Shown here: positions 3,935 through 43,869 of the stretch, piece by piece
How the letters are laid out: each line of letters begins with the position of its first letter
Position numbering within the stretch: the stretch's first letter is position 1
Virus record (IMG/VR): IMGVR_UViG_3300045988_057526
Location: 1 to 43,869 of that record
Length of the DNA stretch: 43,869 bases
Source of the DNA: a virus
Strand: one strand, 5' to 3'
The notes under the pieces: generated by a model
What the model was told of the DNA's origin: nothing
Databases searched by the model: none
The model's input: only the letters and a program-made list of their open reading frames with translations
Program-made: the position numbers and the translations under genes

Positions 3935-3955
3935 AACAGGGGGTGTCTTTTTTGT
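3917..3955 (+). terminator. Rho-independent terminator of the lysogeny operon
   Basis: AGACACTCC...GGGGTGTCT stem (one G-U pair) followed by TTTTTTG. The int stop codon lies in the loop. Confidence 0.7.
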
Positions 3956-3958
3956 TTA

Positions 3959-4065
3959 GGTGATAAAGGTGAGTAATCGAGCGTTTTTCCTATAAACTCT
4001 CTCTTATACGCGCGTACTAAGAAGAAGTTATAGGGATTTTGACCCGATTACTCACCTTTATCACC
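3959..4065. repeat. Nested palindrome A (107 bp). The inner 46 bp is the attP candidate.
   Basis: Perfect 21-bp arms GGTGATAAAGGTGAGTAATCG / CGATTACTCACCTTTATCACC. Inner imperfect dyad at 3989-4034 (16 of 23 per half) is centred on TACGCGCGTA (4007-4016). It lies between convergent terminators next to int. Confidence 0.6.
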
Positions 4066-4080
4066 TTATACACTTAAATG

Positions 4081-4721: not shown

Positions 4722-5653
4722 CTGGCAGTGTCCTCCATCATTCGCTGGCACACGGCCAGTGTCCGCAGCATATCCATGGACAAGTTCAGCTTGCCGTCGC
4801 CCACGCCCACAAGCACACCGTCATCGACAAGCTTTTGCACCGTGTCCTGTGCCCATGCCGGCACATCAGTCACCTTGCCATCCACGATGCGCCCATAGCG
4901 CGTATCACGCATATGCCACATGATGTACAGCATCCGCAGCATATCATCGCTCAGGTCGAGTCTGCCGCCGCCCGTACCGGCGATCAGACCTTCGTCCATC
5001 ATCTCTTTGATCGTGCTGCGTGCCCACGTGGGCACTTCTTCGATTGTCCCGTATCTTGTCATATCTTCTTCCTCCTTTTCTGTACCGTGCATTGCTTTAT
5101 ATACATCCTGCCTGAACCCGTGCATCGTCAGGCCGAATGGCTTCCACAAGTGCTCCGGGTCGGCGTGTGCGCTTGCTACACCACGCATACGTCCCTCGGA
5201 ATGGCTGATAATGACGCCGTCAGCCAAGGGGTCAAGGTCAAACTGGGTACAAAGCTGTGCGAACAACTCAACAGCCGCCGCGTATGTGCCCCTAATATGA
5301 GTTTCTGTTGCCTCTGTATCAAGATCGCGCCACTCAGCGCCATAACCGGTGTAGGCGATAGATGCAGGCTCCGTCATCTCGATGCCGATGTGCGTGCCGT
5401 TTGCGCTGCCGCCGCAGTGCCATGCCTGTACAGTCCACGGCAGTGTTTGATATACTTTGCCATCCCGCTGCACAAAAGCATGGACGCATACACTCTGCCC
5501 GTTTGGGCGATATTGATTAAAATTCTGCGCCATCACCGACGCATTGGGCTGCGGGCAGCCAATGCTGTGCAGCATGATGCCGCGCGGGTACAACGGTGTT
5601 GCTGCTTGATAGCACTTATTTTTAGTTGCAAATGATTCGATAATGTTGGTCAT
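4718..5653 (-). CDS. Endolysin: N-acetylmuramoyl-L-alanine amidase (Amidase_2/PGRP-like) with two C-terminal repeats of about 45 aa
   Basis: MLHSIGCPQP...VHAFV...AWHCGGSANGTHIGIEMTEP. Tandem repeats are TWARSTIKEMMDEGLIAGTGGGRLDLSDDMLRML and PAWAQDTVQKLVDDGVLVGVGDGKLNLSMDMLRTL. Confidence 0.8.
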   Translation of the reverse strand: MTNIIESFATKNKCYQAATPLYPRGIMLHSIGCPQPNASVMAQNFNQYRPNGQSVCVHAFVQRDGKVYQTLPWTVQAWHCGGSANGTHIGIEMTEPASIAYTGYGAEWRDLDTEATETHIRGTYAAAVELFAQLCTQFDLDPLADGVIISHSEGRMRGVASAHADPEHLWKPFGLTMHGFRQDVYKAMHGTEKEEEDMTRYGTIEEVPTWARSTIKEMMDEGLIAGTGGGRLDLSDDMLRMLYIMWHMRDTRYGRIVDGKVTDVPAWAQDTVQKLVDDGVLVGVGDGKLNLSMDMLRTLAVCQRMMEDTAR

Positions 5654-12255: not shown

Positions 12256-15200
12256 TTACGCCAACAGTGGGCTAAATCCGGTTGCGCGGATGGCGGCATT
12301 GTTTTCGTCAACCATCTGTCTAAACAATTCTTTACCGTTCATCTGCACAATTACAGTGATCGGGCGGCTGTTGCCCGAATTCGTTTCACCGCTTGCCCTC
12401 TGCACTGCCTCGTACACACCTTGCGATACAGATTCAACAATCTGATCGTTGTTTGCTACAGCCGTCTTTCTGCCGATATTACCAACCATTTCGGCACCGG
12501 ATTCACGAGCGATAAAGAGCTGCCCTTCATCCACAAAACCGCCGTCTGCGAAAGTAGGAACGTGGGGAATGTTCACCAACCGGGCGTTAAATGCTGGAAC
12601 GACTTCTTTTCCAAGAACACTCAATCCTCTGAAAGAGATATGAAATACGTTATTGATTGCATCTACAACTCGGTTAATTATTCCGATAATGGAATTCGCC
12701 ATTCTCCGAACAAAATTGGTAATGGGGTTATCATCAAGTGACCATGCCGCGTATGACAGGCCAAGACCAGCCGCTAGCACGGCAAGACCCAATCCAATTC
12801 CAGCACCGCTCAAACAAAGCAGAACACCGAGTACCGTCAGAGCGCCTCCGAGAATACCTGCGATAACAGAAACCACTTTTTTAATGGCGGTCACAACGGT
12901 GTTCCAGTTCAGGGCTACCGCCGATCCGAGACTTAGAGCGCCAGCCGCCATCAGGCCAAGACCGAGAGGAAGGGCGACTCCGCTCAGAGCAAGGATAGCG
13001 CCGACCGCCAAGAGAGCGCCGCCGACAACGATGGTAATTATGTTGATCTTCTTCCGAACATTGTCGGAGAGGTTATTCCAGTTCGGCATAATCGCCGTAC
13101 CCATTGTGACCGCGCCTGCCGCCAACAGAGCCAGAGCCAGCGGGATATTCGTCCCGGAGAACGCCAGTGCCGCACCAATAGCGAGGAACGCCACAGATAC
13201 AACTGCGGTAATAACTGCAATCACATTCTGAATTTCATCGCTCAGGCCATTCCAGTTGAGAGCCATCACGGAAACCAGAGAAGTAGCGCCAACAGCCATC
13301 AGCGCAATACCGAGGGGCATAGACCCGGAGAAAGCGAGGATAGCACCGAGTGCCAAGGTTGCTCCGCTGACCAGCAATCCTACTCTGGACAAGGGAGAAG
13401 CCAGAGCTTTCGATATACTATTCCAGTTCAGAGCTGCGGCAGATACAAGCGTGGCAGCACCAATAGCCATCAGCGCAATACCCAGCCCGATTGCAACCCC
13501 GGTAAAGGCTAACATAGCGCCGACAGCCAGAGAAGCACCTGCCAGAACTCCCGTTAAGGTGGTCAAAGCGTCAGTGAGGTGTTGGTCGCTGTTATGCCAG
13601 TTGATAACAGCGGCAGTTGCAAGGCTTGCTCCACCCAAGGCCATCAACGCGATACCAAGAGGAAGGTTTGCCCCGGAAAACGCCATAATTGCGCCAAGAG
13701 CCAGCAGGAAACCACCGACAACACCCGTAATGAGAGCCAGTGTATTTGCCAATTCGCTACTCATAGCTGTCCAATTCAGCCCCACGGTAGCCGCAAGACC
13801 GACCGCACCAGCAGCCATCAGGCTGACGCCCAGCGGAATATTCACACCGGTTACGACCAGAATTGCACCTACCGCCAGCATAAAGCCGGAAACAATCGTG
13901 GCGATCTCTGCAAGAGTATTTTCAATCATCTTCTGGATTTCACCGATGCGGGTTTCTACCGCATCATCGAGAAAGCCATAGGTGGGAAGATCGAAGTCAA
14001 ATCCACCCCCGCCAGCACCACCAGCGCCCCCGCCCGATCCGGCATTGCTGTTCGAGGGAAGTACATTCAACTCGTCAAATCCGGCAATGTATTTCTTTAG
14101 CTCTTTAGCTGACCCGGCAGCGCTTCCGAGATTATCTGCCACCGCCCCCGTGCCGGATGCGAGTTTCCCAACGCTTGAGTAATCAACATCGGTCAAAGTA
14201 AAACCGAGAAGATTTGCGATAGCGTTTGCAATCTCTCGAATAACTTTAACTACGGCAATCGCATAAGGAAGGATGGCGTTCAGAGCCGGAATGAAGATGT
14301 TACCGATAGCTCGTGCAGCCTGTGTAAGCTGTGCCTGCAAGATACGAAGCTGGTTTGCGGGAGCTTCCAGAGTTCTCGCCATATCGCCTTGAGCGGTCGT
14401 CACCTGAGTCATGACGGCATAATATCTCAGCTCGGCCTTTTCTGCCTGCGTCATGTTCGCAACGCTTTCCTTGATACCAAGGTTCAAAGCGGTCTGTTCC
14501 AATCGTGCCTGCGACAAATCGTAGCCCAAGCGCCGCAGAGGTTCCAGCTCACCGGAAATACCGGACTGTAACTTCTGCATAGCGTCTTCAATGGAAATGT
14601 TGAAGAAAGAAGAAAGGTCATAACCCAACTGCGTCAGGTTTCGGCTCATGAGCTGCGCTCGTTCTGCCGTGTCACCAAAGCCGGTCAGCAGCGTATTGAA
14701 AATGCCCTGATTGCGGAGCCATTGCGCAGGGTCAATACCCATGACATCGGATACCTTTTCCGCATATTCTTTTGCTTCACCCGCATACTCCCCCAAGGCA
14801 ACCGTGAACAGGTTCAGGTCTTCTTGGTACTTATTGGACTCCGTGACCGCCTGTGCAATGAAATTACCGATTTTGCGGAAAGCGACTGCGACAGCAGCAA
14901 CGTTCAACGCTTTCAATCCACCCGTGAACTTCCCGGTAGTGGAGGTTGCCTTACCAACCGAAGCATTGTATTTTTCCGTGCTGGTAATCAGCTTTTGGAT
15001 TTTGGACGGGAACGCCGAAAAACCGTTGGACACCTTCTGCATTTCATCAGCGAAAGGCTTCATGGCGGCGGCAAGAGAGGTCATCTGTTGCGTGAACTTG
15101 TCAATATCTGCCGCTTCCAAGTCTTCAATTACTTTCGGCAATTTCGAAAGTTGAGTCGTGAAAGAGGTTAGATTGGCCTTCCTCATATTGGAGAGGGGAA

Positions 15201-15570
15201 GCAAACCATTAACGAGGGTTGTCACTTTGTCCCCGTCTGTCCATTTAAGACCAGCGATAGCAGTGTTGATGGCCGTAAGCTGATTGGCAATGGATGAAGA
15301 AATCTTCACATTTCCAACCTGACTCAGTGCGCTCATTGCCTTCGTGATCCTGCCAATCTTTTGAGAGGCGTCGCCGCTGTTCAAGCCTTTCAGAGAATTA
15401 GAAAGCTCCCGAATACCATGAGCGGTCTTGCTCAGACCCGTTACGCCGCCGTTGGTGGCGGTTTTTAAACGATTGAGCGTGTTAATCAGGTTTTGAAGCC
15501 CCTTGACCGCCTGCGTACTGTCATTGACGATCTGAAACTCTAACCCCTGAATTTCCACATTATCAGCCAC
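12256..15570 (-). CDS. Tape measure protein (1104 aa)
   Basis: Largest ORF, following the chaperone pair. Long helical N-terminal region, Gly-rich linker and a hydrophobic repeat block. GTG start overlaps the upstream stop. Confidence 0.85.
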   Translation of the reverse strand: MADNVEIQGLEFQIVNDSTQAVKGLQNLINTLNRLKTATNGGVTGLSKTAHGIRELSNSLKGLNSGDASQKIGRITKAMSALSQVGNVKISSSIANQLTAINTAIAGLKWTDGDKVTTLVNGLLPLSNMRKANLTSFTTQLSKLPKVIEDLEAADIDKFTQQMTSLAAAMKPFADEMQKVSNGFSAFPSKIQKLITSTEKYNASVGKATSTTGKFTGGLKALNVAAVAVAFRKIGNFIAQAVTESNKYQEDLNLFTVALGEYAGEAKEYAEKVSDVMGIDPAQWLRNQGIFNTLLTGFGDTAERAQLMSRNLTQLGYDLSSFFNISIEDAMQKLQSGISGELEPLRRLGYDLSQARLEQTALNLGIKESVANMTQAEKAELRYYAVMTQVTTAQGDMARTLEAPANQLRILQAQLTQAARAIGNIFIPALNAILPYAIAVVKVIREIANAIANLLGFTLTDVDYSSVGKLASGTGAVADNLGSAAGSAKELKKYIAGFDELNVLPSNSNAGSGGGAGGAGGGGFDFDLPTYGFLDDAVETRIGEIQKMIENTLAEIATIVSGFMLAVGAILVVTGVNIPLGVSLMAAGAVGLAATVGLNWTAMSSELANTLALITGVVGGFLLALGAIMAFSGANLPLGIALMALGGASLATAAVINWHNSDQHLTDALTTLTGVLAGASLAVGAMLAFTGVAIGLGIALMAIGAATLVSAAALNWNSISKALASPLSRVGLLVSGATLALGAILAFSGSMPLGIALMAVGATSLVSVMALNWNGLSDEIQNVIAVITAVVSVAFLAIGAALAFSGTNIPLALALLAAGAVTMGTAIMPNWNNLSDNVRKKINIITIVVGGALLAVGAILALSGVALPLGLGLMAAGALSLGSAVALNWNTVVTAIKKVVSVIAGILGGALTVLGVLLCLSGAGIGLGLAVLAAGLGLSYAAWSLDDNPITNFVRRMANSIIGIINRVVDAINNVFHISFRGLSVLGKEVVPAFNARLVNIPHVPTFADGGFVDEGQLFIARESGAEMVGNIGRKTAVANNDQIVESVSQGVYEAVQRASGETNSGNSRPITVIVQMNGKELFRQMVDENNAAIRATGFSPLLA
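12736..13917 (-). repeat. Seven tandem repeats of about 174 nt (58 aa) inside the tape measure gene
   Basis: Each unit ends in an LNWN-type motif and contains xxGAxLAxGAILAFSGxNxPLGIALMAxGAxSL, which is two hydrophobic helices per unit. Confidence 0.8.
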
Positions 15571-16400: not shown

Positions 16401-16832
16401 TTAGGTTGCGGAGAAAGTGATGGGGGTAGACGGGGCAATGGTGATGTTCATGCCTACCACTTCATTCACGCCACCACCAACGGGGTACACGGACAGCTCA
16501 CCGTCAAAGGAAAACTTGCCGTTGGAGCCATCGGGAGTGACCACACCGGCGCTCTCCGTGCCGCCAAACCAAACTGCATAACTGGCTTTCTTGCCTTCGA
16601 GAGCCTTGAGAGCCTGAAAATCAGACAGCGTGTAGTTGGCGGTGAAGGACAGGCCGTCAAGAGACTGGATACCGGCGATGTAGGTCTGCATATCATCACT
16701 CAGAGTGGTGGTTTCCAGCATTTCAGGCTCACCGCCGAGGTCGGGAAACTCCTTGATGTCGATCAGCTTGCTCCAAGTATCGCCGGTATCACCTTTCTTC
16801 ATCAGAAAGGTTTTATAGGTCGAAATAGCCAT
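16401..16832 (-). CDS. Major tail protein
   Basis: MAISTYKTFLMKKGDTGDTWSKLIDIKEFPDLGGEPEMLETTTLSD... is a typical siphovirus major-tail N-terminus. The second ATG has better AGGAGG spacing. Confidence 0.7.
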   Translation of the reverse strand: MAISTYKTFLMKKGDTGDTWSKLIDIKEFPDLGGEPEMLETTTLSDDMQTYIAGIQSLDGLSFTANYTLSDFQALKALEGKKASYAVWFGGTESAGVVTPDGSNGKFSFDGELSVYPVGGGVNEVVGMNITIAPSTPITFSAT

Positions 16833-20531: not shown

Positions 20532-20684
20532 CTATGCGATAGGCTGTTCATATTTCTTTTTGCTGCTGACCGCCCACACAACCACTTTCTCGTTCCGCTG
20601 CGCGATCTCAACGGTCTTTCCCGTAGTCAAGATTTCTTCAATCTTTCTGACCGCCGCCGGGGTCAGGCGGATTTCCTTCTCCAT
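20532..20684 (-). CDS. Small protein (50 aa) overlapping the portal 3' end, below the track cutoff
   Basis: AAGGAGG lies 9 nt upstream of ATG 20684. Reads MEKEIRLTPAAVRKIEEILTTGKTVEIAQRNEKVVVWAVSSKKKYEQPIA. The stop lies inside an 8-bp hairpin (20524-20543). Confidence 0.5.
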   Translation of the reverse strand: MEKEIRLTPAAVRKIEEILTTGKTVEIAQRNEKVVVWAVSSKKKYEQPIA

Positions 20685-22065
20685 CAGGATTAACCTCCTT
20701 CTGCTTGGTTGTGAGTTCAGCAGCCTTTTTCTCCTGTTCCTCAGCGTAATCCATACTCATACGGTACGCGAGCTGCGGGTCGCTGAACATACCCGAATGT
20801 GTAAAGGCCAGAACAGGGGCAATCTTCGGATTGGCAAGCATAGTAGTCAATACTGTTGCTTTCTGAGCGATATTCTCATAATTGCGGCGAGTAAAGCGAA
20901 CCTCTACGTTCGATAGCTTCAATTCCAGATCACTCAGATCGGAACAGATGTGCAGAACCAGCTTCAAGAACTCTTTTTCGGAGAGCTTGAACATCAACTC
21001 GGAGTCTTTCGCTCTGGCTTCCGCCGCCGACCAACCGTCACGCATGATGACCGCAGAGCCGGTATCGCTGGTGGAAGTACCACCATTACGGTTCGGCATA
21101 CCGCAGATCGTCAGTACCGTGTTATAGAGGTGATCGACCAGCGTTTGTGTCTGGCTCTGGTTCAGTTCGGAGGTCAGATACTTGATCTCCGCTTTATACT
21201 GCGGGTCAATGTCCTTGAACTTAATCGCACCCTCGTCCCGCAGCTTGGAGAAATCATTGCCGGAAATATCAACATTGTGAAACAGCATGAGCGCCTGAAC
21301 AAACTGTTCTACACCGTCAAGACGGTTGCTGTCCACCGTATTGATAGCGTCCAGCAAGGGAAGGACGATCTCGAAAGCACCCAACCGGGCGTTATTCGCC
21401 GGGTATTCGATAATGGGAATACCGAGCGACTGAGCTTCTTCCCGGACGATCATGCTCTGGTTTTCAACCTCGAAATAGCGGTCTTTCGTATAAATGCTGT
21501 AAATCACCGCACCGTCCGACCGCTTAATATACTTCACACCCATTACGGGCGGTTCACCGATGGAATTGGCATACACCACGAAAGCAAACCGAGGGTCGAG
21601 GGTGTAAATTTCGAAAGGAGCTTCATCGCTTTCCTTCTCAAACACGCTGTCTGGAAGCACCATGCGGTATGCCGTGCCGCAGATGTGAAACCAATCTGCC
21701 AGTTCTTTATCCTTTGCTGCCTTATCCTCGGAAAGACAGTAACCGTTCAGAGTGGTGATCTTGTCGGCAACTATCTTATCATCGCTTCGACTGACATACT
21801 GAATAGGTTCACCCATCAGATAGCCAACTTTGAAGGACACGATCTCATTGGCACGGTTCTCGACCACCGTATTTTTAATTTCCGGGCGAACTTCCTTCTT
21901 GCGCTTCAGCACCGGCTGCCTACCCTTGTAGTAAGCGTAGAGGTACTCCATATCCGCCTTATTCGACCAATGCGTGATAAGTGCCTTTCTCAACACTTCC
22001 AGAACATTGTCCCGTGTGATCTCTGTCACATCAGTAAAGATTTTCTTACGACCGAAATGACCCAA
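20638..22065 (-). CDS. Portal protein (SPP1 gp6-like)
   Basis: 475 aa. ADMEYLYAYYKGRQPVLKRKKEVRPEIKNTVVENRANEIVSFKVGYLMGEPIQYV. TTG start lies 9 nt after GGGGAGG. Confidence 0.85.
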   Translation of the reverse strand: MGHFGRKKIFTDVTEITRDNVLEVLRKALITHWSNKADMEYLYAYYKGRQPVLKRKKEVRPEIKNTVVENRANEIVSFKVGYLMGEPIQYVSRSDDKIVADKITTLNGYCLSEDKAAKDKELADWFHICGTAYRMVLPDSVFEKESDEAPFEIYTLDPRFAFVVYANSIGEPPVMGVKYIKRSDGAVIYSIYTKDRYFEVENQSMIVREEAQSLGIPIIEYPANNARLGAFEIVLPLLDAINTVDSNRLDGVEQFVQALMLFHNVDISGNDFSKLRDEGAIKFKDIDPQYKAEIKYLTSELNQSQTQTLVDHLYNTVLTICGMPNRNGGTSTSDTGSAVIMRDGWSAAEARAKDSELMFKLSEKEFLKLVLHICSDLSDLELKLSNVEVRFTRRNYENIAQKATVLTTMLANPKIAPVLAFTHSGMFSDPQLAYRMSMDYAEEQEKKAAELTTKQKEVNPDGEGNPPDPGGGQKD

Positions 22066-22178: not shown

Positions 22179-23825
22179 TCAGATAGGCCGTTTGAAAACC
22201 TCCACCTTGCCCCCGGACAGCATACGGATTTCGTTCTCCAACAGGGAGAGGGAATCGGGAGCGTCATCGTGCGGAACCTTACCGGAGCGGGTGTATGTGG
22301 TCACTTCCTTCATGAAATTCCAATATTGACTGCCTCGCTTGTAGGTAGAAGGGTGCTTGAAGTAGAAGTTCTTCTTGATATTGTCCGAAGCAAACTCGAT
22401 ACGGGTCTGCTTATTGGAGATCGTGCGCTTCGTGCGGATACCCACGGAATACCCACGCTCACGAATGATCTGGTCAACATCTCTGGCATAATACTGACCG
22501 GCGTTGTTGGACTCAAAAACAGCAGAAGCAACTTTATTTTCAATCAGGCACTTGGCGCATTCCGGCTTCGTCACCTCAGCGGGAGAGTCATCAAAGACCA
22601 CATCGACGATATACACATCGCTGCCGTAAATCTTCGCTACCGGCATGGAGGTCGAATCTGAGCCGCTTTCCGCCGTATCGCCAACGGCGATGATGGTATC
22701 CGGGTCACGGTCTTTCGGCAGCTCGAAGAAATAGTTCAGCTCTTCCTTGTTGAACAGCAGACCCTTCGCCTCAAAGGGCTGTTGCTGAAACTCGCTTTCA
22801 AACTGCTCTGCGCTCAGAAGCTCCCGCTGCTCCCGGAAGTAGGCGGTGGTGAAAACCTTTTTACCCTCCCGCTCGTATTCATAATTGCTCTCGTCCGTCA
22901 CAAGATCGAGGGCGGGTATCTCAATCGCTCTCCAAGCCCAGCCCTCCCGCTGAGCGTGTTCCTGCACACGACCGATGGGGTCATACAGGGAATAGCGAGT
23001 GCCGGTAAAGACCATCGGCGTACCTTCAATGGCACGACCCATGATATCGCCAGAGATCACTTCCCACTTGTCATCAAGCCGCTGGCGGTTCTTCGCTTCC
23101 TCACGACCTTCCACGCAGTCATCAAGGTAGAGGACATTGGTGGCCTCGGACAAGCCCACCTGTCGAGCGTCAATGGAACGGCACATGATCGTGGGGAAAC
23201 GGGACTTGCTTTTCAGGTTCACCGTCTTAGTGTCGGCGTTGGTCTGCACCAACCGTGCATCCGGGAATACATCGTAGAACAGGTACTCGTTGGGAACGGT
23301 CAGGTATTCCAGACAGCCGTTGTAGAAGCTCTTTACAAGGTCATCGCCTGTCCCTTCCATCAGGGTCGAGCGGTCAGGGAACTTCCCAGAGAGCATATTC
23401 ACAAAATTGATACCCGTTTGAGACTTTCCCGCTCGCTTTGGCATGGAGATCGTCAAAAGGCGCAACTTCCCGTCCAAAACATCTTGAAACCCCTGCACCA
23501 TCGGCCTGAGATAGTGCTTACGGGGGGCATAGAACCGCTTTTCTGGCTTGCGGTCGAGTTCGATGTAGGTCATGAAAGAGTCAAAATCATGGGGCGCTTC
23601 AAAGAGAAGACACCGCCGCCACTGTTCATAGAACTTCGCTCCGCCACCACGGACTACCTGATCTGCGGAAAGCGCCAGCAGCTCCTTGTTTACCTTATGT
23701 GCCGCCGAGAAATCCTCAGTTTCCCACTCCCGGCACAGAGAAAAGAGGTCGCTGTACGCTCCGTTATCTCCCGGTCTGCGGTCGATCACGGCTCGGATAG
23801 AGCCGGAGAGTTTTTCATAATTCAT
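22179..23825 (-). CDS. terL: Terminase large subunit
   Basis: 548 aa. Walker A-like MPKRAGKSQTG. Later acidic nuclease-type blocks (IIAVGDTAESGSDS). Lies directly upstream of the portal gene. Confidence 0.85.
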   Translation of the reverse strand: MNYEKLSGSIRAVIDRRPGDNGAYSDLFSLCREWETEDFSAAHKVNKELLALSADQVVRGGGAKFYEQWRRCLLFEAPHDFDSFMTYIELDRKPEKRFYAPRKHYLRPMVQGFQDVLDGKLRLLTISMPKRAGKSQTGINFVNMLSGKFPDRSTLMEGTGDDLVKSFYNGCLEYLTVPNEYLFYDVFPDARLVQTNADTKTVNLKSKSRFPTIMCRSIDARQVGLSEATNVLYLDDCVEGREEAKNRQRLDDKWEVISGDIMGRAIEGTPMVFTGTRYSLYDPIGRVQEHAQREGWAWRAIEIPALDLVTDESNYEYEREGKKVFTTAYFREQRELLSAEQFESEFQQQPFEAKGLLFNKEELNYFFELPKDRDPDTIIAVGDTAESGSDSTSMPVAKIYGSDVYIVDVVFDDSPAEVTKPECAKCLIENKVASAVFESNNAGQYYARDVDQIIRERGYSVGIRTKRTISNKQTRIEFASDNIKKNFYFKHPSTYKRGSQYWNFMKEVTTYTRSGKVPHDDAPDSLSLLENEIRMLSGGKVEVFKRPI

Positions 23826-23918
23826 GTGCATTTCCTTTCCAACAAAGAAACGAGCTACCCGTGTATTTCTACACAGATAGCCCGTCATGGCTGTCACTCC
23901 TGCCCCCGCAGAAGCCAA

Positions 23919-24560
23919 TTATCTGGATTTTGCCATCAGCTCGGCAAACTCCCGGCTGTTTTTCTTAACCGTTCTTTCAATCAATCTCCCATTGCTATAA
24001 AGCACTCGGAAAAGAACAGTAGCAGAGAAAATGTTTCTGGATTGGCTCATGGTCTTCTTTGTACCACTCAAACCACCCACCACGGCACCGGCGCTACCAA
24101 ACATCAAACCGCCAACCGCCGCTCTACCGAGAGATACATTTTTGCCTCGGCTGATTGATTCCTGCCCCATGCCATTATCGCAAGGCTCAGCGGCGACCGG
24201 AACAGGCTTACCAACTTGCAAGGGGAAGGCGGGATATTCCTTTCGGAAATCCTCAATGAGATCGCTCCATTCTTTGTCCGGCAAATCCCAAATGTTTTCC
24301 GGCTTATTTCCGTTCATCGCCACTAAAGCCCCCGTGAGCGTTGCGTTATCCGAGCTGACCATGATTTCAGTTCCGTCTTCCAGTTCCCTCAGATAAAACA
24401 CAAATGGGAGAGAACCTTTCCCCATGCGGAACCTTGTTCGTACCTCAATGCTCTCATTCGGGCAGTCCTGTTTGATGGCGCAAGACCGTTCACAGACTGT
24501 CTTGATAAGCTGATAGCTTTCGCTGGTAGTCATGGGTAATGAAAACTGATAGTACGCCAT
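23919..24560 (-). CDS. Hypothetical protein with a glycine-zipper segment (213 aa)
   Basis: GRAAVGGLMFGSAGAVVGGLSG (aa 145-166) has a small residue every fourth position. Its ATG directly abuts the recombinase TAA stop. Confidence 0.6.
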   Translation of the reverse strand: MAYYQFSLPMTTSESYQLIKTVCERSCAIKQDCPNESIEVRTRFRMGKGSLPFVFYLRELEDGTEIMVSSDNATLTGALVAMNGNKPENIWDLPDKEWSDLIEDFRKEYPAFPLQVGKPVPVAAEPCDNGMGQESISRGKNVSLGRAAVGGLMFGSAGAVVGGLSGTKKTMSQSRNIFSATVLFRVLYSNGRLIERTVKKNSREFAELMAKSR

Positions 24561-25331
24561 TTACACTTCTACCCCTTTCAAAATCGGCTCGTGAACGCCC
24601 TTGACCCAATTCATATTCCCGTATTTATACATACCCTCGTACAGAGGACGGTTGCCGAGAATACTTTTGATGGTAGACACCTGAAACCGCTTGCCGGAAC
24701 GGGTCTGGTATCCCGCCTTTTCCAGCAGCTCCGTGATACCCAGCATGGAAACGCCGTCCTCGTGCTTCTCGAAGATGAACTTCACGATAGGAGCTTCCTG
24801 CTCGTCAATGGTGAGAACACCATCAACTACCTTATAGCCGTAAGGACGGCGACCACCGCTGTACCCGCCGCAGGAAGCCTTGATGGAACGACCCTTGCCG
24901 GTTCGCAAAGCGATGTTCTTTCTCTCCTGCTCTGCCACGAATTGAAGCAGCGCACGGTAGATGTTGGCAAACTCGCTGCCCTCTGTGAAGCTCTCCTGCG
25001 TACTCAGAAGTTTGATGTTCTTCTTTTCCAGCACATACAGGTAGTAGAAGTACAGCTTGGTATCACGAGCCACACGGTCATTCTTGAATACGATCACCGC
25101 TTCATAGGGAGGATTGCTTACATCGTCCCCATAAAGGATTTCGTTCAGACCGGGACGATCATCTTTCGCACCGCTGATTTCATCGACCTTCCAGTCTACG
25201 ATGTTGTAGCCGTTGTCATTGGCGTAGAGAAGAATGGCCTGCTTCTGAACTTCGATGCCGTATTTGTCATCATCGGCCTGTCGCTCGGTGGAGACTCGGA
25301 TATAGCCGATTGCGTTTTTGAATGTCATCAT
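24561..25331 (-). CDS. Short serine recombinase (about 256 aa): catalytic and recombinase domains, no zinc ribbon or coiled coil
   Basis: AIGYIRVSTERQ catalytic Ser. GGRRPYGYKVVDGVLTIDEQEAPIVKFIF...STIKSILGNRPLYEG recombinase domain. Ends shortly after VHEPIL. Confidence 0.8.
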   Translation of the reverse strand: MMTFKNAIGYIRVSTERQADDDKYGIEVQKQAILLYANDNGYNIVDWKVDEISGAKDDRPGLNEILYGDDVSNPPYEAVIVFKNDRVARDTKLYFYYLYVLEKKNIKLLSTQESFTEGSEFANIYRALLQFVAEQERKNIALRTGKGRSIKASCGGYSGGRRPYGYKVVDGVLTIDEQEAPIVKFIFEKHEDGVSMLGITELLEKAGYQTRSGKRFQVSTIKSILGNRPLYEGMYKYGNMNWVKGVHEPILKGVEV

Positions 25332-25350
25332 AAGATCACCTCTTGCATAT

Positions 25351-25379
25351 AAGATAGCATAGGTAAATGTAATTGTCAA
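25351..25379 (-). promoter_or_regulatory. Promoter P2: TTGACA, 17-nt spacer, TATCTT, upstream of the recombinase
   Basis: Minus strand reads TTGACA (25379-25374), attacatttacctatgc (17 nt), TATCTT (25356-25351), then AGAGGTGAT ribosome-binding site and ATG. Confidence 0.6.
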
Positions 25380-25504
25380 TAGGTAAGTGTAAATAAGCCT
25401 TTTTATTTTTTTGCGGATATTTTTCAGCTTACCCCACCCTCGCTGCCGCTGGCATATCCCCCGCCCCCGTCACCCATTCACGTTGCCCCGATTAGGCCGA
25501 AAAA

Positions 25505-25542
25505 GCGCAAAAAATAACCGCCCCGGAATAGCACCGGGGCGG
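25505..25542 (-). terminator. Rho-independent terminator closing the four-gene cassette
   Basis: CCGCCCCGG / CCGGGGCGG 9-bp stem followed on the minus strand by TTATTTTTTG. Confidence 0.75.
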
Positions 25543-25545
25543 CGT

Positions 25546-25818
25546 TCACTTATTCAATTTCAATATTTCAATCAAGATTTGCACCGGCAGCAAAAGCAAC
25601 AAAAGAATTAAATACACGCTTTCACCGCCTTTCAACCCACGCACACCCAAACAAAAGCGGGGGTTGTATTTCCGGCCTTTATATGGCTTTACCGTGATAT
25701 TACAAAAGCAATTTGCAACCCCTTGCACCCATGTTTCATAGCGTATAAACGCTTGTACTGTGTCAGGGGATACAAGATAGCAGCTTGCGCCGCCGTGCTT
25801 TTTCCTTGCGTATATCAT
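25546..25818 (-). CDS. Hypothetical protein (90 aa) with a Leu-rich hydrophobic C-terminus; coding status uncertain
   Basis: ORF runs from a G-rich ribosome-binding site to just before the terminator. It contains a 13-mer also found in promoter P1. Confidence 0.35.
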   Translation of the reverse strand: MIYARKKHGGASCYLVSPDTVQAFIRYETWVQGVANCFCNITVKPYKGRKYNPRFCLGVRGLKGGESVYLILLLLLLPVQILIEILKLNK

Positions 25819-25832
25819 GCCCCACACCCCCG

Positions 25833-26180
25833 TTAAAATACCGTATCAACAACGGTTAGAATTGTTACCCACAGATCAATATACTGTGTGCTATATCCGG
25901 TATAATCGCCCTTGTCAAACTCTGTTTTGCCCGTGATAACATAACCAACTTGTTTTGCGCCCCCGTCTGGTAGATCAACGAACATTTCCGACTTGTTTTT
26001 AATGGCATTTTTGGAAATGATGATGCAATGCTTTTCTTCTACCCGTTCCCGGTAAATTTCAAGCGCATTTTTCACGCTATCCGCATTTATACGCATATCC
26101 GAAATAATACCGCCGTCAATGTACCATTTTTTATTGTTGTATTCTTTCATTGTTGCCGTTGTTTTGAAAATGTAATTCAT
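25833..26180 (-). CDS. Hypothetical protein (115 aa), low-GC cassette
   Basis: MNYIFKTTATMKEYNNKKWYIDGG... No motif I can assign. Confidence 0.55.
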   Translation of the reverse strand: MNYIFKTTATMKEYNNKKWYIDGGIISDMRINADSVKNALEIYRERVEEKHCIIISKNAIKNKSEMFVDLPDGGAKQVGYVITGKTEFDKGDYTGYSTQYIDLWVTILTVVDTVF

Positions 26181-26182
26181 AA

Positions 26183-26440
26183 TTAAACCCCCATTCTGAT
26201 ACATTCATCAAGCGGGATTTTATACCCGTCAACCCTAAAAAATGCGCTATCTTTCCCGTTTGTGGGGTAGTAGATTTTACAACGGTGGAAACGCTGCGCC
26301 GCTTTCCCGCCATACCAACAACCAGAGACGCAATAAACATAATCGTCAATGCCATATTCAATGCCTTTGATTTCAAGCCCATTCAAGCCGCTATAATAGG
26401 CGATACTTTCCCGGCTTTCACAATACTGTCTTTTGTTCAT
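26183..26440 (-). CDS. Hypothetical protein (85 aa), low-GC cassette
   Basis: MNKRQYCESRESIAYYSGLNGLEIKGIEYGIDDYVY... AAAGGGG ribosome-binding site. Confidence 0.55.
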   Translation of the reverse strand: MNKRQYCESRESIAYYSGLNGLEIKGIEYGIDDYVYCVSGCWYGGKAAQRFHRCKIYYPTNGKDSAFFRVDGYKIPLDECIRMGV

Positions 26441-26454
26441 CGTTCTAACCCCTT

Positions 26455-26883
26455 TCAAAATGGCACGGTATAGGAAATAGCCCCGGATTTTTCAAGCGTT
26501 CTAATGTGGCGGCAAATTCTATTTGCGGCCTGATATAACGCCCTTGCTTGCACATCTAACCATTCTTCCCGGCTATTGGGGCGGCGTTCCCCGTTGCGGG
26601 TTTTCTTCAATTCTGACGGGCAGCAAAGCCTTTCTGCTATATCGCCGTCATAAATCAAAGAACAACCGCCCCAACTGTATTGACTCCAATTTGCCGCCCC
26701 ATTCAGCAGCGCCGCCCGGACTTTTTTAGGCTCTGTTAAATCCAATTCTTCAAAATAGCCGCCGTTAATTTGTTCACCCAACTGTCCCACCATTTCAAGG
26801 GCGTATTGTGTTACCCCTTTATCCCATGCGGAACGCTGCTTTTCGCCTTCAATGCTTTGATACAGCTTTTCAATATTCGTCAT
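26455..26883 (-). CDS. Hypothetical protein (142 aa), first gene of the low-GC cassette
   Basis: MTNIEKLYQSIEGEKQRSAWDKGVTQYALEMV...NWSQYSWGGCSLIYDGDIAERL... Lies downstream of promoter P1. Confidence 0.6.
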   Translation of the reverse strand: MTNIEKLYQSIEGEKQRSAWDKGVTQYALEMVGQLGEQINGGYFEELDLTEPKKVRAALLNGAANWSQYSWGGCSLIYDGDIAERLCCPSELKKTRNGERRPNSREEWLDVQARALYQAANRICRHIRTLEKSGAISYTVPF

Positions 26884-27035
26884 ATAGCAATCAGCCTTTC
26901 ATAATATATATTCCGTTCCGTTTTCCCATTTTCGGCCTTGATACGCTGAAAGCCTATTTCACCGGCCTACATGGGGAAATGTACGGGGATTTAATTTTCA
27001 AGGTACATTTGCATTTACTGCCTTTCGGTAAATAC

Positions 27036-27064
27036 AAGATAGCATATTTACATTTACTTGTCAA
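27036..27064 (-). promoter_or_regulatory. Promoter P1: TTGACA, 17-nt spacer, TATCTT, upstream of the cassette
   Basis: Minus strand reads TTGACA (27064-27059), agtaaatgtaaatatgc (17 nt), TATCTT (27041-27036). Same architecture as P2. Confidence 0.6.
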
Positions 27065-27138
27065 GCGTAAATATAAAAGAAAATCAAGATTTTTCGCAAA
27101 TGTGGCCGCTATACATTATAAAGGGCAAAAAAACGCGG

Positions 27139-27214
27139 CCCCGATCAAGCCGGGACACCGACAACGCCCACGCAGCCCCAATCAAGCCGGAACCCGCCGC
27201 CGATCAGCCGGGGA
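27139..27214. repeat. Three 16-17-bp repeats of the form CC(G/A)ATCA(A)GCCGG(G/A)A
   Basis: Copies at 27139-27155, 27176-27192 and 27199-27214. Confidence 0.6.
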
Positions 27215-27259
27215 AAGGAAAAGCCGCCGACCCCGTGAAGAGATCGGCAGCTCTGTCAA

Positions 27260-27403
27260 AGTCGCAGACCCTCGCCGTAAAGTCGCAAAGTCGTTCGGGC
27301 GAAAGTCGTAAAAGTCGTGGGAAAATCGCAAAGTCGCTCGGCATAGTCGTAAGCTATAGTCGCAAAAGTCGTGAAAGTCGCTCAGTCCTCTGAGTCATAG
27401 TCG
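27260..27403. repeat. Array of 11 AGTCG pentamers (CGACT on the minus strand) plus one AATCG variant, irregular 8-23 bp spacing
   Basis: AGTCG begins at 27260, 27281, 27289, 27304, 27313, 27332, 27345, 27358, 27367, 27376 and 27399. Eight copies are AAAGTCG. One further AAAGTCG sits at 27969-27975, just upstream of terS. Confidence 0.8.
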
Positions 27404-27951
27404 CCGGACGCACCAACCACATCTTCGAGGTACTTCTTTTCCAAGTCCTCAGCGGGAACCTGATCTCCGAGCTGCTGGTTGGGTGTCAACACGACCTCCT
27501 GCTTGTCCGCATAGCCCATGTTGTTCTTCATCAAGAAGATACCGGCGACCGGATTGATCTTCCCGTTCTGCATATAATTTTCCATCTGAGCGTTCAAAAA
27601 TTGATACGCCTTTTTTAGCGAGTCCCTGCTTTCAGAGGGGATATAGGCACTATCAATACCATTTACCCACTTCCACAGAGTTCTTCTATCAATACCGAAC
27701 GCCAATGCCATACCTGCAACAGAGGGTTTCATGTCATCTTCGGCACAAATCCGAAAGTAATTCCCAATACGCTCAGTCACAGCTTCCGGCTTGGTCATAT
27801 CAACAGCAGGCCAGCCCCACATTCTCAAATCGTGTTCGAGAAACTTCCGATTATCTCCCGGTTGAAGCTGTGCCGTACTATCAGGCCGTTTATTACCGCC
27901 AGTACCTTTTGGTCTGCCACGACCACGCTTTTCCGCAATTTCATCTGCCAT
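27382..27951 (-). CDS. terS: Terminase small subunit
   Basis: N-terminus GRGRPKGTGGNKRP, central helix-turn-helix-like GMALAFGIDRRTLWKWV, C-terminus AGIFLMKNNMGYADKQE. GAAAGGAG ribosome-binding site. Confidence 0.75.
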   Translation of the reverse strand: MADEIAEKRGRGRPKGTGGNKRPDSTAQLQPGDNRKFLEHDLRMWGWPAVDMTKPEAVTERIGNYFRICAEDDMKPSVAGMALAFGIDRRTLWKWVNGIDSAYIPSESRDSLKKAYQFLNAQMENYMQNGKINPVAGIFLMKNNMGYADKQEVVLTPNQQLGDQVPAEDLEKKYLEDVVGASGDYDSED

Positions 27952-27979
27952 AGTCGTTTTCTCCTTTCAAAGTCGCCAA

Positions 27980-28086
27980 GGTGATAAAGGTGAGTAATCG
28001 GGTGCATTTCCCTATAACTATTTCTATATACGCGCGTATAAGAGAGAGTTATAGGCATTTATGCCCGATTACTCACCTAACTCACC
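27980..28086. repeat. Nested palindrome B (107 bp), a paralogue of element A
   Basis: Left arm is identical to A. Right arm matches 18 of 21. The inner dyad at 28011-28055 has the same TACGCGCGTA centre. Its right half is the reverse complement of the A left half (22 of 22 with one 1-nt indel). Confidence 0.8.
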
Positions 28087-28146
28087 TAAAATACGAAAAA
28101 CAATTTTTCAAAACACGCCAATTTGAAAAAAGTCTTTGCAAAAACA

Positions 28147-28174
28147 CTCACCTTTATCACCTTTATCACCTAAC
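28147..28174 (-). repeat. Iterons GGTGATAAA GGTGATAAA GGTGAG overlapping the stop of the upstream gene
   Basis: Minus strand reads TAG TTAGGTGATAAAGGTGATAAAGGTGAG. The 18-mer TCACCTTTATCACCTAAC recurs exactly at 28515-28532. Confidence 0.75.
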
Positions 28175-28503
28175 TACCAATTAGCGTTGATAACCACCTT
28201 GTTCCCATGAGCGAGTGCTTCCGTCACAATCCACACCACACCGTCCCAGTTGTAGACCTTTTTCTTCACGGCGTAGTCTACAAGCTGCTTTGCCTGCTCG
28301 CTGTCAAGAACCATGTCCTTACCATACCAGTCGTTCTCCTTGGTTCGCTTCTCGTAAGGAACATAGTAGCCGAGCTTTTCCAGAAAGTCGTACCAAAGTC
28401 GACCACTGCTGTCAATGCTGGCTATATCCGTATGCCCAACAGGGACACCGCAGTTGGGACAGCGATACTCCTTACGCTCTGAGATCGTAATATCAAGACC
28501 CAT
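28174..28503 (-). CDS. Hypothetical protein (109 aa) immediately upstream of the late region
   Basis: MGLDITISERKEYRCPNCGVPVGH... Its ribosome-binding site is embedded in the repeated 15-mer. Confidence 0.6.
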   Translation of the reverse strand: MGLDITISERKEYRCPNCGVPVGHTDIASIDSSGRLWYDFLEKLGYYVPYEKRTKENDWYGKDMVLDSEQAKQLVDYAVKKKVYNWDGVVWIVTEALAHGNKVVINANW

Positions 28504-28527
28504 ACTATTTCACCTCACCTTTATCAC

Positions 28528-28731
28528 CTAACGGCGGCGTCCGATGTATTCGTCAATACTAATCCGCAATGCATCCGCAAGCAGAGCGATTGTATCAATT
28601 CGCCCATTTTTCGTCGTGCCACATTCCAGCGCGCAGATCGTGGATATGGGCACACCTGAAATCCGCGACAGTTGTGCCGCTGACAACTTAGCCCTATTAC
28701 GTGCTTTACGCATACTCTCGCCCTTTGTCAT
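28528..28731 (-). CDS. XRE-family helix-turn-helix protein (67 aa)
   Basis: RKARNRAKLSAAQLSRISGVPISTICALECGTTKNGRIDTIALLADAL. Confidence 0.7.
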   Translation of the reverse strand: MTKGESMRKARNRAKLSAAQLSRISGVPISTICALECGTTKNGRIDTIALLADALRISIDEYIGRRR

Positions 28732-42677: not shown

Positions 42678-43869
42678 GGAACTTGCACCCCGCTTTCCGG
42701 TAGGTGGTACACCGCTTCTTGTAACTTCTCACGAGGTACTGGATACCATCGTCCACATAATCATAGGCGATAGGTTCTCCCTTTCCCTCGAAGGTACGAG
42801 CGATACGACCAATGCTCTGAGTTATCACAGCGTAGTCTTTCTGCGGCGTAGTCAGGTACAAGCGGTCGAGCCGGGGAATGTCAAGTCCTTCCTTTGCCAG
42901 TGAATAGGTGGCAAACAGATACCGCTTGCGTCCCTGCCGCATTTCCTCAATAGCCTGTTCTCGGAGAGCCTTGGCCTTCTTCGTGGTCATCTTTCCATCA
43001 ATCATGACCGCCTGTTTTCTCAGGTCGGACGGAAGATGGTTCATCAAATACTCCAAATGACCAAGCCTGTCTGATAGAATTAGGTTGAAATGCTGATCGT
43101 TCTGTATAAGATCGCCAACAATCTGACCGTTACGGCGAAAATCTTCGACAAGATAATTCACCAGTTTTGCATAAATGATTGTGCCGTCCGTATCAAGAAA
43201 TTCACGGTCTAAACCGATGTGAGTGGCACGGGGTAGAACGCTGACGGTCATGATCTTGTCTTTCACCGCTTCCTCCGGCACCCGATAGGCAATCCCGCCC
43301 AGCAAGGCGTAGGTGGCGGCAATCATACCGTCTGCCCTGTGAACCGTGGCGGACAGACCGTACTTGTGTCGAGCTGCCAGAGCGTTCAGCACCTTTGAGA
43401 ACTGCGTCATGGCGGTCGGAGTTCCGGCTACACGGTGACACTCGTCCACGATGATACAATCCCAAACATCACGGTATTGACTCAGATCGAGGTTGCACAT
43501 GGTCTGTACCGTTGCGAAGGTGATTGCCTTGCCGATTTGAACCCTACCTTCGGTGATTGTGCCAGTCAAAGAAGGACTCATATACTGCTCCGCTCGGCTT
43601 TTGCTCTGTACGAGCAAATCCCGTGTATGGGTCAGCCAGAGTGTCCTTCGACCTGTATCTGCCGCAACAGCAATTCCGATCTGCGTCTTACCGCATCCCG
43701 CAGGGGCTTGAAGAATACCGTAGTAGGCAGTTATCAGGGCTTCCTTGGCTTCCACTTGGTAGTCATAGAGCGGAATGGTGCAACCGAAGTCCACCTCGGT
43801 CGGCGTTGGAAGATTGACCTTCATGTGACAATCGTCCATCGCCAGCACATCGTTCAAGCACCCGTAGGG
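42667..43869 (-). CDS. SF2 (DEAD/DEAH-type) helicase, main body; continues at 80-265 across the circular junction (462 aa in total)
   Basis: LQAPAGCGKT (Walker A), IIVDECHRV (motif II), SAT and a C-terminal RecA-like domain. The TTG at 43857 is only an artefact of the window edge. Confidence 0.8.
   Translation of the reverse strand, partial: PYGCLNDVLAMDDCHMKVNLPTPTEVDFGCTIPLYDYQVEAKEALITAYYGILQAPAGCGKTQIGIAVAADTGRRTLWLTHTRDLLVQSKSRAEQYMSPSLTGTITEGRVQIGKAITFATVQTMCNLDLSQYRDVWDCIIVDECHRVAGTPTAMTQFSKVLNALAARHKYGLSATVHRADGMIAATYALLGGIAYRVPEEAVKDKIMTVSVLPRATHIGLDREFLDTDGTIIYAKLVNYLVEDFRRNGQIVGDLIQNDQHFNLILSDRLGHLEYLMNHLPSDLRKQAVMIDGKMTTKKAKALREQAIEEMRQGRKRYLFATYSLAKEGLDIPRLDRLYLTTPQKDYAVITQSIGRIARTFEGKGEPIAYDYVDDGIQYLVRSYKKRCTTYRKAGCKFLEP
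43791..43869. repeat. Second copy of the 79-bp closure overlap
   Basis: Identical to bases 1-79. Confidence 0.9.

Follow-up and report, generated by a model that had tools for sequence, protein, structure and literature searches.

A conserved two-slot accessory locus separates the terminase genes in temperate phages of gut Clostridia and probably encodes its own regulator

The DNA analysed here, called the window throughout, is the whole stretch of 43,869 nucleotides (nt) of the IMG/VR virus record IMGVR_UViG_3300045988_057526, and the subject of this report is the interval of 3,556 nt which separates its small terminase gene (terS) from its large terminase gene (terL). Bases 1-79 of the window are an exact direct repeat of bases 43791-43869, so the window represents a circularly closed, complete phage genome of 43,790 bp, with the late genes on the minus strand. 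The phage is temperate, and it encodes a full-length large serine integrase of 554 aa (2270-3934; Resolvase, Recombinase and Zn-ribbon domains) and a CI/LexA-type repressor (1615-2268). The initial annotation of this sequence had listed between the terminase genes a repeat field, a promoter (P1) with four small genes and a strong terminator, and a second promoter (P2) with genes for a short serine recombinase and a glycine-zipper protein; all of these elements were found again at their places on the minus strand (Table 1), with the reservation that the 3' part of the fourth small gene, g93, is doubtful. The G+C content dips to 0.43-0.46 over 25000-27000, against about 0.49-0.53 in the flanking bins, and the interval thus deviates in base composition as is expected of morons, the promoter-gene-terminator units situated within the late operon of lambdoid phages (HK97/HK022-type).

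Table 1. Features of the terS-terL interval and of its flanks, listed from terS to the portal gene (positions of the window; promoters and operators are predictions)
Feature	Coordinates	Strand	Remarks
terS, small terminase subunit	27382-27951	-	Pfam GP3_package 3.8e-11; phrog_606 8e-11; upstream locus boundary
Anchor L	27400-27120	-	CGACTTT array (5' part) and terminator-like element (3' part), after terS
CGACTTT array	27258-27381	-	8 copies plus CGACTAT, directly after the terS stop; candidate TerS recognition array
G-rich GGCYTGATCGGGGC repeats with terminator-like hairpin and T run	27122-27215	-	repeat family D1; scan match 27156-27138
S1, exact 11-mer AAATCTTGATT	27082-27092	-	palindrome AAATC-TT-GATT; upstream of P1
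P1	27064-27036	-	TTGACA, 17-nt spacer, TG-extended TATCTT; head of slot A
P1 operator 12-mer GTAAATGTAAAT	27046-27057	-	motif match, in the spacer
P1 operator 12-mer GTAAATGCAAAT	27007-27018	-	motif match, at about +25
g142, slot A gene 1	26455-26883	-	small cytoplasmic protein
g91, slot A gene 2	26183-26440	-	phrog_17101 (unknown function) 7.6e-11; probable start ATG 26440
g123, slot A gene 3	25833-26180	-	115 aa from ATG 26180; no family match
g93, slot A gene 4	25546-25818	-	doubtful beyond residue ~65
Anchor M	25640-25400	-	non-coding spacer: S2, slot-A terminator, G-rich stretch, UP-like A-tract before P2
S2, exact second copy of AAATCTTGATT	25570-25580	-	within anchor M
Slot-A terminator	25543-25517	-	10-bp GC-rich stem and U run; -22.9 kcal/mol, z -2.9
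P2 operator 12-mers	25363-25374, 25383-25394	-	motif matches, 20 nt apart; cover the -35 hexamer and the spacer
P2	25379-25351	-	head of slot B
Short serine recombinase, 256 aa	24561-25331	-	Pfam Resolvase 4e-25 and Recombinase PF07508 5e-10; first gene after P2
gz213, glycine-zipper protein	23919-24560	-	last cargo gene of slot B; begins directly at the recombinase stop codon
Anchor R	23920-23826	-	17-bp hairpin ahead of terL
Perfect 17-bp hairpin, then UUUCUUUGUU	23886-23849	-	just before the terL ribosome-binding site, in anchor R
terL, large terminase subunit	22179-23825	-	phrog_38 2.1e-45; Pfam Terminase-T7_RNaseH-like (T7-type RNaseH-like nuclease domain); downstream locus boundary
SPP1-type portal	20638-22065	-	comes after terL

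Relatives were collected through terL, of which IMG/VR holds 509, and the best 80, at 98% identity or more, were taken as close loci. Both terminase genes are present in about 70 of the close loci and in every one of them they stand 2.9-4.9 kb apart; relatives with 66-86% terL identity, which are prophages or metagenome-assembled genomes of Oscillospiraceae, Lachnospiraceae (Moryella, Oribacterium), Butyricicoccus and others, show the same split, and the gap across close and distant relatives ranges from 2.9 to 7.6 kb. An adjacent terS-terL pair, which is what relatives devoid of the unit show at the site of a moron, was encountered in none of the approximately 70 close and 15 distant loci. 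The view of the initial annotation that the interval had been inserted into an adjacent pair has to be abandoned, the split being universal wherever both genes are visible, down to about 66% terL identity. A recent foreign insertion of 3.5 kb, composed of two independent morons and placed into ancestrally adjacent, co-translated terminase genes, would account for the low G+C content, for units which have their own promoters and terminators and for gene content that differs between near-identical phages; it is nevertheless extremely unlikely in view of the lack of any adjacent pair, of conserved anchors and a regulatory logic which span the whole interval, and of a recombinase which diverges roughly in step with terL (72% recombinase identity with 81% for terL, 50% with 67% and 42% with 52%), which argues for long residence at the locus. 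In one relative with 52% terL identity (L103) terS is off the locus and the recombinase gene directly abuts terL, and in another phage (L109) an 81%-identical recombinase lies between terS and terL, directly ahead of terL.

A coverage map of the close loci revealed three conserved non-coding anchors (L, M and R) with two variable slots between them, slot A of 820-2,078 bp and slot B of 1,400-2,846 bp. Clustering of the open reading frames (ORFs) of the slots gave about 40 architectures for slot A and about 20 for slot B, and the combination of the window recurs in a single other contig (L045). Genomes with a terL identity of 98% or more differ in the genes that they carry in the slots, which bears out the description of this part as accessory-looking and shows it to be the fast-changing part of the packaging region. 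Comparison of synteny with related phages had been proposed as a check, with the idea that an arrangement shared by them might consist of packaging essentials; the arrangement is indeed shared, the slot genes are however replaced by non-homologous ones and for this reason cannot be packaging essentials. The interval is this genome's copy of a conserved, scaffolded two-slot accessory locus, which a large lineage of temperate phages with gut Clostridia as hosts carries as a regular part of its genomes. Each slot would correspond to a moron-type unit, equipped with a sigma-70-type promoter and a terminator of its own, and slot genes would be exchanged between phages through recombination at the anchors and at gene boundaries. 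A scan of species-representative genomes placed the phage in Oscillospiraceae. No cultured relative exceeded about 28% terL identity, and 76% was reached by uncultured records only. The nearest isolate prophage lies in a contig of Dysosmobacter segnis BX15 (L084, 53.5 kb; terL 99% identical), and the terS-terL interval is contiguous there, which suggests that the locus is not an integration site; the prophage ends were not mapped in that contig. Two kinds of additional gene were observed in the interval of some relatives. In one contig (L023, about 5160-5460) an ORF judged by eye to be NUMOD4/HNH homing endonuclease-like directly follows terS and precedes the point where the CGACTTT array sequence resumes. 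Distant relatives share a conserved ORF (about 243 aa) which lies on the opposite strand and is read in the direction contrary to that of the late genes (L090 7272-8000, L091 4215-4946, L092 7205-7939, L094 7508-8242, L095 6957-7685 and L106 959-1744), with a P-loop motif (LLIAGATGSGKS...IDPKRVEL) which looks FtsK/HerA-like by eye.

Both slots are headed by predicted promoters of the same make. P1 and P2 are the sole matches to TTGACA-N14-TGCTATCTT in the 43.9 kb (0.13 expected), they lie in a 33-nt direct repeat of 82% identity, and each agrees with the consensus at 10 of 12 positions and has a TG extension. Together with the two terminators (-22.9 and -29.3 kcal/mol) these promoters, as far as they can be read from the sequence, agree with the proposal of two autonomous transcription units and with the possession of an own promoter and terminator that is usual for morons. 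A 12-mer, GTAAATGYAAAT, is shared by both promoters in two copies each, the copies at P2 being inverted relative to those at P1. The motif has five matches in the window (0.43 expected), four of them at P1 or P2, and neither the immunity region nor any other part of the window contains it, apart from one match with one mismatch at 16831. P1 and P2 would accordingly form one small regulon in which the same short operator repeats are read.

The relatives point to the source of the protein that reads them. The first gene of slot B encodes a DNA-binding protein, and a serine recombinase is always present in close relatives. In 68 of 68 loci the operator at P1 is the same as that at P2 and corresponds to the type of the first gene after P2, with four specificities in all: GTAAATGYAAAT stands at both promoters where this gene is the short recombinase (cluster C9, 28 of 28 loci), AATAAAAYRCTTGA where it is the first variant of a helix-turn-helix (HTH) protein (C2, 29 of 29) and CAAGTTAAAACTT where it is the second variant (C2, 9 of 9), while none of these three motifs is found with another HTH protein (C26, 2 of 2). 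At the positions of P1 and P2 a near-consensus sigma-70 promoter is seen for every regulator type, the sequences being non-homologous, and the operator motifs are essentially missing from the other ~20 kb of each locus. Identical slot-A cargo (C4-C6-C0) occurs with all three main regulators, and the P1 operator follows the regulator encoded 1-2 kb away and never the adjacent cargo, which means that the coupling is selected and is not mere linkage. The agreement in 68 of 68 loci indicates that the locus encodes its own regulator. Operators which overlap the promoter and covary with a locus-encoded regulator, here at both promoters, are a mark of operons controlled by anti-CRISPR-associated (Aca) proteins; the small HTH regulator that belongs to the same type is lacking in the window and occupies this position in 40 other loci.

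These 40 loci start with an HTH gene (C2; C26 in two), which is sometimes followed by a Bro-N antirepressor-like gene and a second HTH gene, and they always end with a small serine recombinase of 206 aa (C1; Resolvase and weak HTH_7). In the 28 loci with the 255-aa recombinase C9 the P2 operon comprises the recombinase and an envelope cargo gene and no HTH gene, and as no other DNA-binding gene is present in such an operon, the recombinase is the sole local candidate for the regulator. Exceptions in the recombinase-type loci are a 62-aa protein (C23) in some of them and a short ORF ahead of the recombinase in L002 and L017. Hexamers GTAAAT/ATTTAC are enriched upstream of diverse members of the recombinase family (11 versus 1.1 expected), in comparison with 1 of 42 C2-type loci, and in a relative whose recombinase is 63% identical (L104) the motif TTTCGCAAAAA occupies the same positions in both promoters. 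The regulator of the locus in the window is thus probably the serine recombinase of about 255 aa, as judged from these motifs. The recombinase would bind the ATTTACAYTTAC repeats and, by analogy with resolvases and Aca proteins, repress its own promoter P2 and also P1, so that incoming or derepressed DNA would give a burst of expression from slots A and B followed by shut-down to a low maintained level. Taken as a whole, a scaffolded two-slot locus with a two-promoter regulon and a swappable, locus-encoded regulator, which in this phage is the recombinase, is the account that we consider reasonably likely. The leader of the P1 operon (5' untranslated region, 26886-27007) contains a module of about 120 nt which no more than about 13 relatives have and which goes with different regulators. 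L087 has the module too (80% identity), and there is no Rfam match to it; a structured leader was rejected, as the module is optional and no stabler than its shuffles (z -1.1).

The short recombinase consists of a catalytic domain and the recombinase domain (RD) of large serine recombinases (LSR), and it has no zinc ribbon or coiled coil. It does not fall among the small resolvases and invertases either (about 185-200 aa, with HTH_7), because RD takes the place of HTH_7. The protein is 29% identical to the N-terminal half of the 554-aa integrase of the phage, and its PDB matches are the catalytic domain of TP901-1 and the recombinase domain of A118 (C-terminal fragment, residues 7-108). In 10 family members of 42-100% identity the catalytic serine motif YIRVSTERQ, DRVARD and the E-helix are invariant. 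The C-terminus WVKG.HEPI(L) is also kept across the family, the protein of the window ending in ...WVKGVHEPIL right after RD. There are 1,833 homologues, the best 120 of which are nearly all 251-262 aa long (family 251-272 aa). It was at first held that the protein is a truncated integrase in which gz213 replaces the C-terminal half, because many loci match only recombinase residues 1-252; this reading was rejected on account of the uniform length of about 255 aa and the conserved natural C-terminus. The short recombinase is therefore an intact and widespread LSR-like family without a zinc-ribbon domain. A 75%-identical protein was observed in a bacterial chromosome (L107 5738-9300, in a 174-kb ENA contig from Hadza gut), where the recombinase gene has the same G-rich stretch, A-tract and operator promoter and no terminase genes adjacent to it; it is followed by two small ORFs, a polysaccharide deacetylase gene and a 115-aa ORF, and the divergent promoter of a rhamnosidase gene coincides in part with an inverted copy of AAATCTTGATT. 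This raises the possibility that the recombinase module acts as a local regulator of general use or that it is a small mobile unit.

The cargo of the two slots is different in kind. The proteins of slot A gave no informative match in Pfam, PHROGs, NCBIfam or PADLOC. g142 has 6,075 homologues, represents a very widespread domain with 1,116 clusters at 50% identity and is present in just 2-3 close loci; its domain is often C-terminal in longer proteins, some of them with DUF3849, and its structure model, built with homologues of at least 91% identity only, is not usable, with a predicted local distance difference test score (pLDDT) of 40. More common among close loci are g91 (about 43 loci, 71-93% identity) and g123 (about 38 loci, 88-97%). 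The version of g93 found in relatives has 61-67 aa, and the 28 codons at the 3' end recur on unrelated ORFs (clusters C15 and C49); it is the location of this part in the conserved anchor M that makes it doubtful. As small cytoplasmic proteins, the products of slot A would fit, by position and regulation, host takeover or anti-defence.

In slot B the recombinase is followed by one of three alleles, namely gz213, a lipoprotein with a lipobox (C13, sometimes behind a 62-aa protein) or a protein with a membrane anchor and an OB fold (C20), the match of which in PHROGs is phrog_8545 ('superinfection exclusion Sie-like', 2e-14). All six of six possible combinations of recombinase and cargo exist, and in each of them the start codon of the cargo gene touches or overlaps the stop codon of the recombinase gene, which shows that the genes form one operon and that the swap points are gene boundaries. 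Also in distant relatives the gene just before terL nearly always encodes a lipoprotein or a small membrane protein. gz213 itself has 40 homologues and weak PHROG matches (unknown function) on residues 134-174, and its AlphaFold2 model (pLDDT 75.5) shows two alpha/beta lobes interrupted by a disordered glycine zipper, with weak fold matches to KA1, BamC-N and SRPBCC at a template modelling (TM) score of about 0.3. Its homologues bear a precomputed Pfam accession, PF27000.1. The best guess, and a tentative one, is that gz213 has an envelope or exclusion role, because by position it is allelic with the Sie-like protein and the lipoprotein. Slot B would then end in an envelope-associated protein, for which superinfection exclusion or another surface modification seems most plausible.

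Several observations weigh against the account given above. Promoters, operators and repression were all read from the nucleotide sequence and from covariation. The operators are tandem hexamers, direct at P2, and not the dyad that is expected for a dimer of a serine recombinase, and the HTH-type loci always carry the small serine recombinase C1 as well, which a regulator model alone leaves unexplained. L104 has an HTH gene after its recombinase, so its fifth specificity is ambiguous. On the side of the cargo, PADLOC returned no match for 10 slot proteins, all six proteins of the window included, no slot protein matches an annotated anti-defence family, and gz213 has weak fold matches and no signal peptide. 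Alternatively, the gene for the protein that reads the operators might lie outside the locus, in the phage or in the host (the CI-like repressor is one candidate), the recombinase being mere cargo: binding by the recombinase is deduced, tandem hexamers resemble the sites of HTH proteins more, and the phage has further HTH genes. We regard this as very unlikely, since in 68 of 68 mosaic genomes the type of operator goes with that of the gene which stands first after P2, the motif is confined to the locus apart from the mismatched copy at 16831, and the same operator accompanies the 75%-identical recombinase in a non-phage, chromosomal context.

A further point of the same kind is that the catalytic residues are conserved over 42-100% identity. 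It argues that the recombinase still recombines DNA, given that a pure regulator would not need them. The recombinase would in that case be an active site-specific enzyme with the sites at the slot borders (the 12-mers of P1 and P2 or AAATC-TT-GATT) as substrates, which can coexist with autoregulation; slot A could be inverted, excised or exchanged as on a cassette platform, or the system could do next to the packaging site what P1 Cre-lox does, and circularise DNA with terminal redundancy or resolve multimers. In line with such activity some serine recombinase is found wherever slot B is resolved in the close loci (about 70), as it is in many distant loci, and the locus adjoins the pac-like repeat array. 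The two exact copies of the 11-mer AAATCTTGATT, palindromes with a central dinucleotide, are direct repeats which bracket P1 and slot A. Among close relatives the upstream copy is confined to recombinase-type loci, and the element also occurs in L089, in L104 and, inverted, in L107, accompanying recombinases of at least 63% identity; on its sequence it is a candidate crossover site or UP-element. Homologues of slot-A genes stand on the opposite strand in L109 and in Lachnospiraceae relatives, which implies inversion on an evolutionary time scale only.

What speaks against activity is the absence of its products. Not one of 80 close loci has an inverted or deleted arrangement (minus-strand matches were only the palindrome upstream of terS), predicted junctions of inversion and deletion between P1 and P2 numbered 0 in IMG/VR versus 30 contigs with intact P2, and the one inversion junction looked for in JGI metagenomes gave 0 versus 21 such contigs; an invertible segment was rejected on these counts (0 versus 51 intact contigs together). 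Cassette junctions made by the recombinase were likewise rejected: the borders between recombinase and cargo lie at stop and start codons, and they have no core sequence shared between variants or common to the two recombinase types, so that the cassette bounded by a recombinase site which characterises integrons is not seen. Moreover slot A is never absent (minimum 820 bp), relatives with HTH genes and without any recombinase retain the split locus, and the 12-mers have no dyad symmetry. We consider an active recombinase of this sort rather unlikely. The combined version, in which the zinc-ribbon-less recombinase is the exchangeable specificity determinant and still loads, flips or unloads slot-A cassettes or circularises DNA near the pac-like array, seems quite unlikely; if true, the terS-terL locus would be a serine-recombinase counterpart of the integron or of Cre-lox, joining gene capture to immunity-like control.

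The anchors which hold this locus together are of interest in themselves. The heptamer CGACTTT occurs 16 times in the window versus 6.1 expected (none of 100 shuffles reaches 16), and the repeat field that the initial annotation noticed after terS accounts for eight of these, all on the minus strand within 123 nt (27258-27380). All close relatives have kept the array, as have L087 and L104; its conservation extends to 79% terL identity, and in more distant relatives with a divergent terS the array gives way to repeats of the CAGAAG type; these features make it a candidate recognition array of TerS, that is a pac-like one. The G-rich GGCYTGATCGGGGC element behind it is present in 58-65 loci, and the fold of the terminator-like hairpin after terS was no better than that of shuffles (z -0.15). 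Anchor M is found in about 70 of 81 loci irrespective of the adjoining genes, and its G-rich and A-tract part recurs ahead of the recombinase gene of distant relatives and of the chromosomal copy. The 5' part of this anchor (25545-25640) is conserved in nearly all relatives, it holds the second AAATCTTGATT copy and in frame it forms the C-terminus of unrelated upstream ORFs (g93 here, C49 elsewhere); it may be coding, an RNA element or a recombination linker. An Rfam search of 23000-28600 returned sub-threshold chance matches only.

The hairpin of anchor R, which was missing from the initial listing, is the most stable of these elements (-29.3 kcal/mol, z -6.7; none of 200 shuffles equally stable), it is conserved in 76-80 loci and it probably closes the P2 unit. 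It bears on how terL is transcribed. Two possibilities had been put forward, namely that terL is fed by P2 or by read-through. The former is less probable because transcripts from P2 would meet, between gz213 and terL, the conserved 17-bp hairpin and its U-rich tail, and more probably terL depends on terminator-resistant late transcription which comes from upstream of terS. One late transcript for TerS and TerL would have to read through the terminators, and antitermination is thereby implied; late transcription of this kind would link terS to terL across the two slots.

Other structures of the genome may be mentioned here. A near-perfect palindrome of about 115 nt is present in two copies which are ~80% alike (3952-4070 and 27975-28092; folded as RNA -57.2 and -53.9 kcal/mol, z -11.4 and -8.8), one of which closely follows the integrase gene while the other lies just upstream of terS, and the pair brackets the whole late operon. 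The copy near terS is kept in 64 relatives. The palindromes might serve in termination or antitermination, be related to an att site or represent a mobile palindrome. Within an ORF of 1,104 aa (12256-15570), which is probably the tape-measure protein, a 66-nt unit occurs four times at 12901-13485, 61-76% identical to the reference copy and spaced 171-174 nt.

When set beside known systems, the locus shows most clearly the features of morons: the units are autonomous and situated in the late region, they have lower G+C and vary among relatives, and they would be tolerated if late transcription is terminator-resistant. Unlike morons, which are scattered single insertions, they have a permanent site, two slots in a scaffold of conserved anchors; the genes on either side of it were adjacent in no relative examined, and one dedicated regulator would serve both units. 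The resolvase of Tn3 and gamma-delta represses, at res, its own and a neighbouring promoter from overlapping binding sites. The gene arrangement described here is similar in that a serine recombinase gene lies directly downstream of a promoter overlapped by its proposed own sites, and it differs in the LSR-type recombinase domain that stands instead of a C-terminal HTH, in tandem hexamers without the sub-site layout of res and in the lack of a detected recombination product (0 junctions versus 51 intact contigs). In prophages of Gram-positive bacteria exclusion genes are located beside recombinase genes, as is the case for ltp of TP-J34 and sie2009 of lactococcal P335 phages. There too a gene for a lipoprotein or membrane protein is co-transcribed with a recombinase gene, in their case from a promoter active in the prophage, and one allele of the present locus (C20) matches a Sie-like PHROG; the differences are that the packaging module and not the lysogeny module is concerned, that a separate full-length integrase exists and that gz213 has no Sie annotation.

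In anti-CRISPR operons Aca autorepressors act at the promoters of the acr genes (PMC6765145, PMC9410906, PMC13551039). The resemblance of the locus to these operons extends to a strong promoter of constitutive type with operator repeats over the -35/-10 region, to a regulator from the same locus and specificity pairs of regulator and operator, and to a position in the structural-gene region of temperate phages with small, fast-changing ORFans as cargo. It differs in that two promoters would be under the control of the regulator, in that the gene of the latter comes first in its operon and not last, and in that the regulator is here probably a serine recombinase and not an HTH protein, and no cargo resembles a known anti-CRISPR protein; the 2026 survey of Aca proteins mentions no recombinase. 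Hotspots of antiviral systems in P2 and P4 prophages (PMC9122126) have in common with the locus a fixed position between core genes at which unrelated cassettes replace one another, and they are unlike it with regard to the small cargo without a known-defence match, the split terminase genes and the own regulatory circuit. The literature yielded no paper that deals with a hotspot between terS and terL, with a recombinase in the role of an Aca-like regulator or with DUF3849. The feature belongs with morons, prophage hotspots and Aca-controlled accessory operons, and what is new with respect to these kinds is a permanent two-slot locus which splits the terminase genes and a regulon of two promoters whose specificity can be swapped. 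A further difference is probably that the regulator is a serine recombinase devoid of the zinc ribbon.

To our knowledge almost no exclusion, defence or anti-defence functions have been described for phages of gut Clostridia, and the locus offers a sharply bounded and abundant site (509 relatives in IMG/VR) in which genes of these three kinds can be mined. The covariation of operator and regulator can serve as a search signature for such loci, comparable to the searches for anti-CRISPR genes that are based on aca. If the short recombinase is the regulator, a family of 1,833 members annotated as 'DNA invertase Pin-like' would gain a function, and autoregulation in the style of resolvases would be extended to LSR-derived proteins. 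The architecture also implies that the terminase genes are joined by terminator-resistant late transcription, which is uncharacterised in this group of phages.

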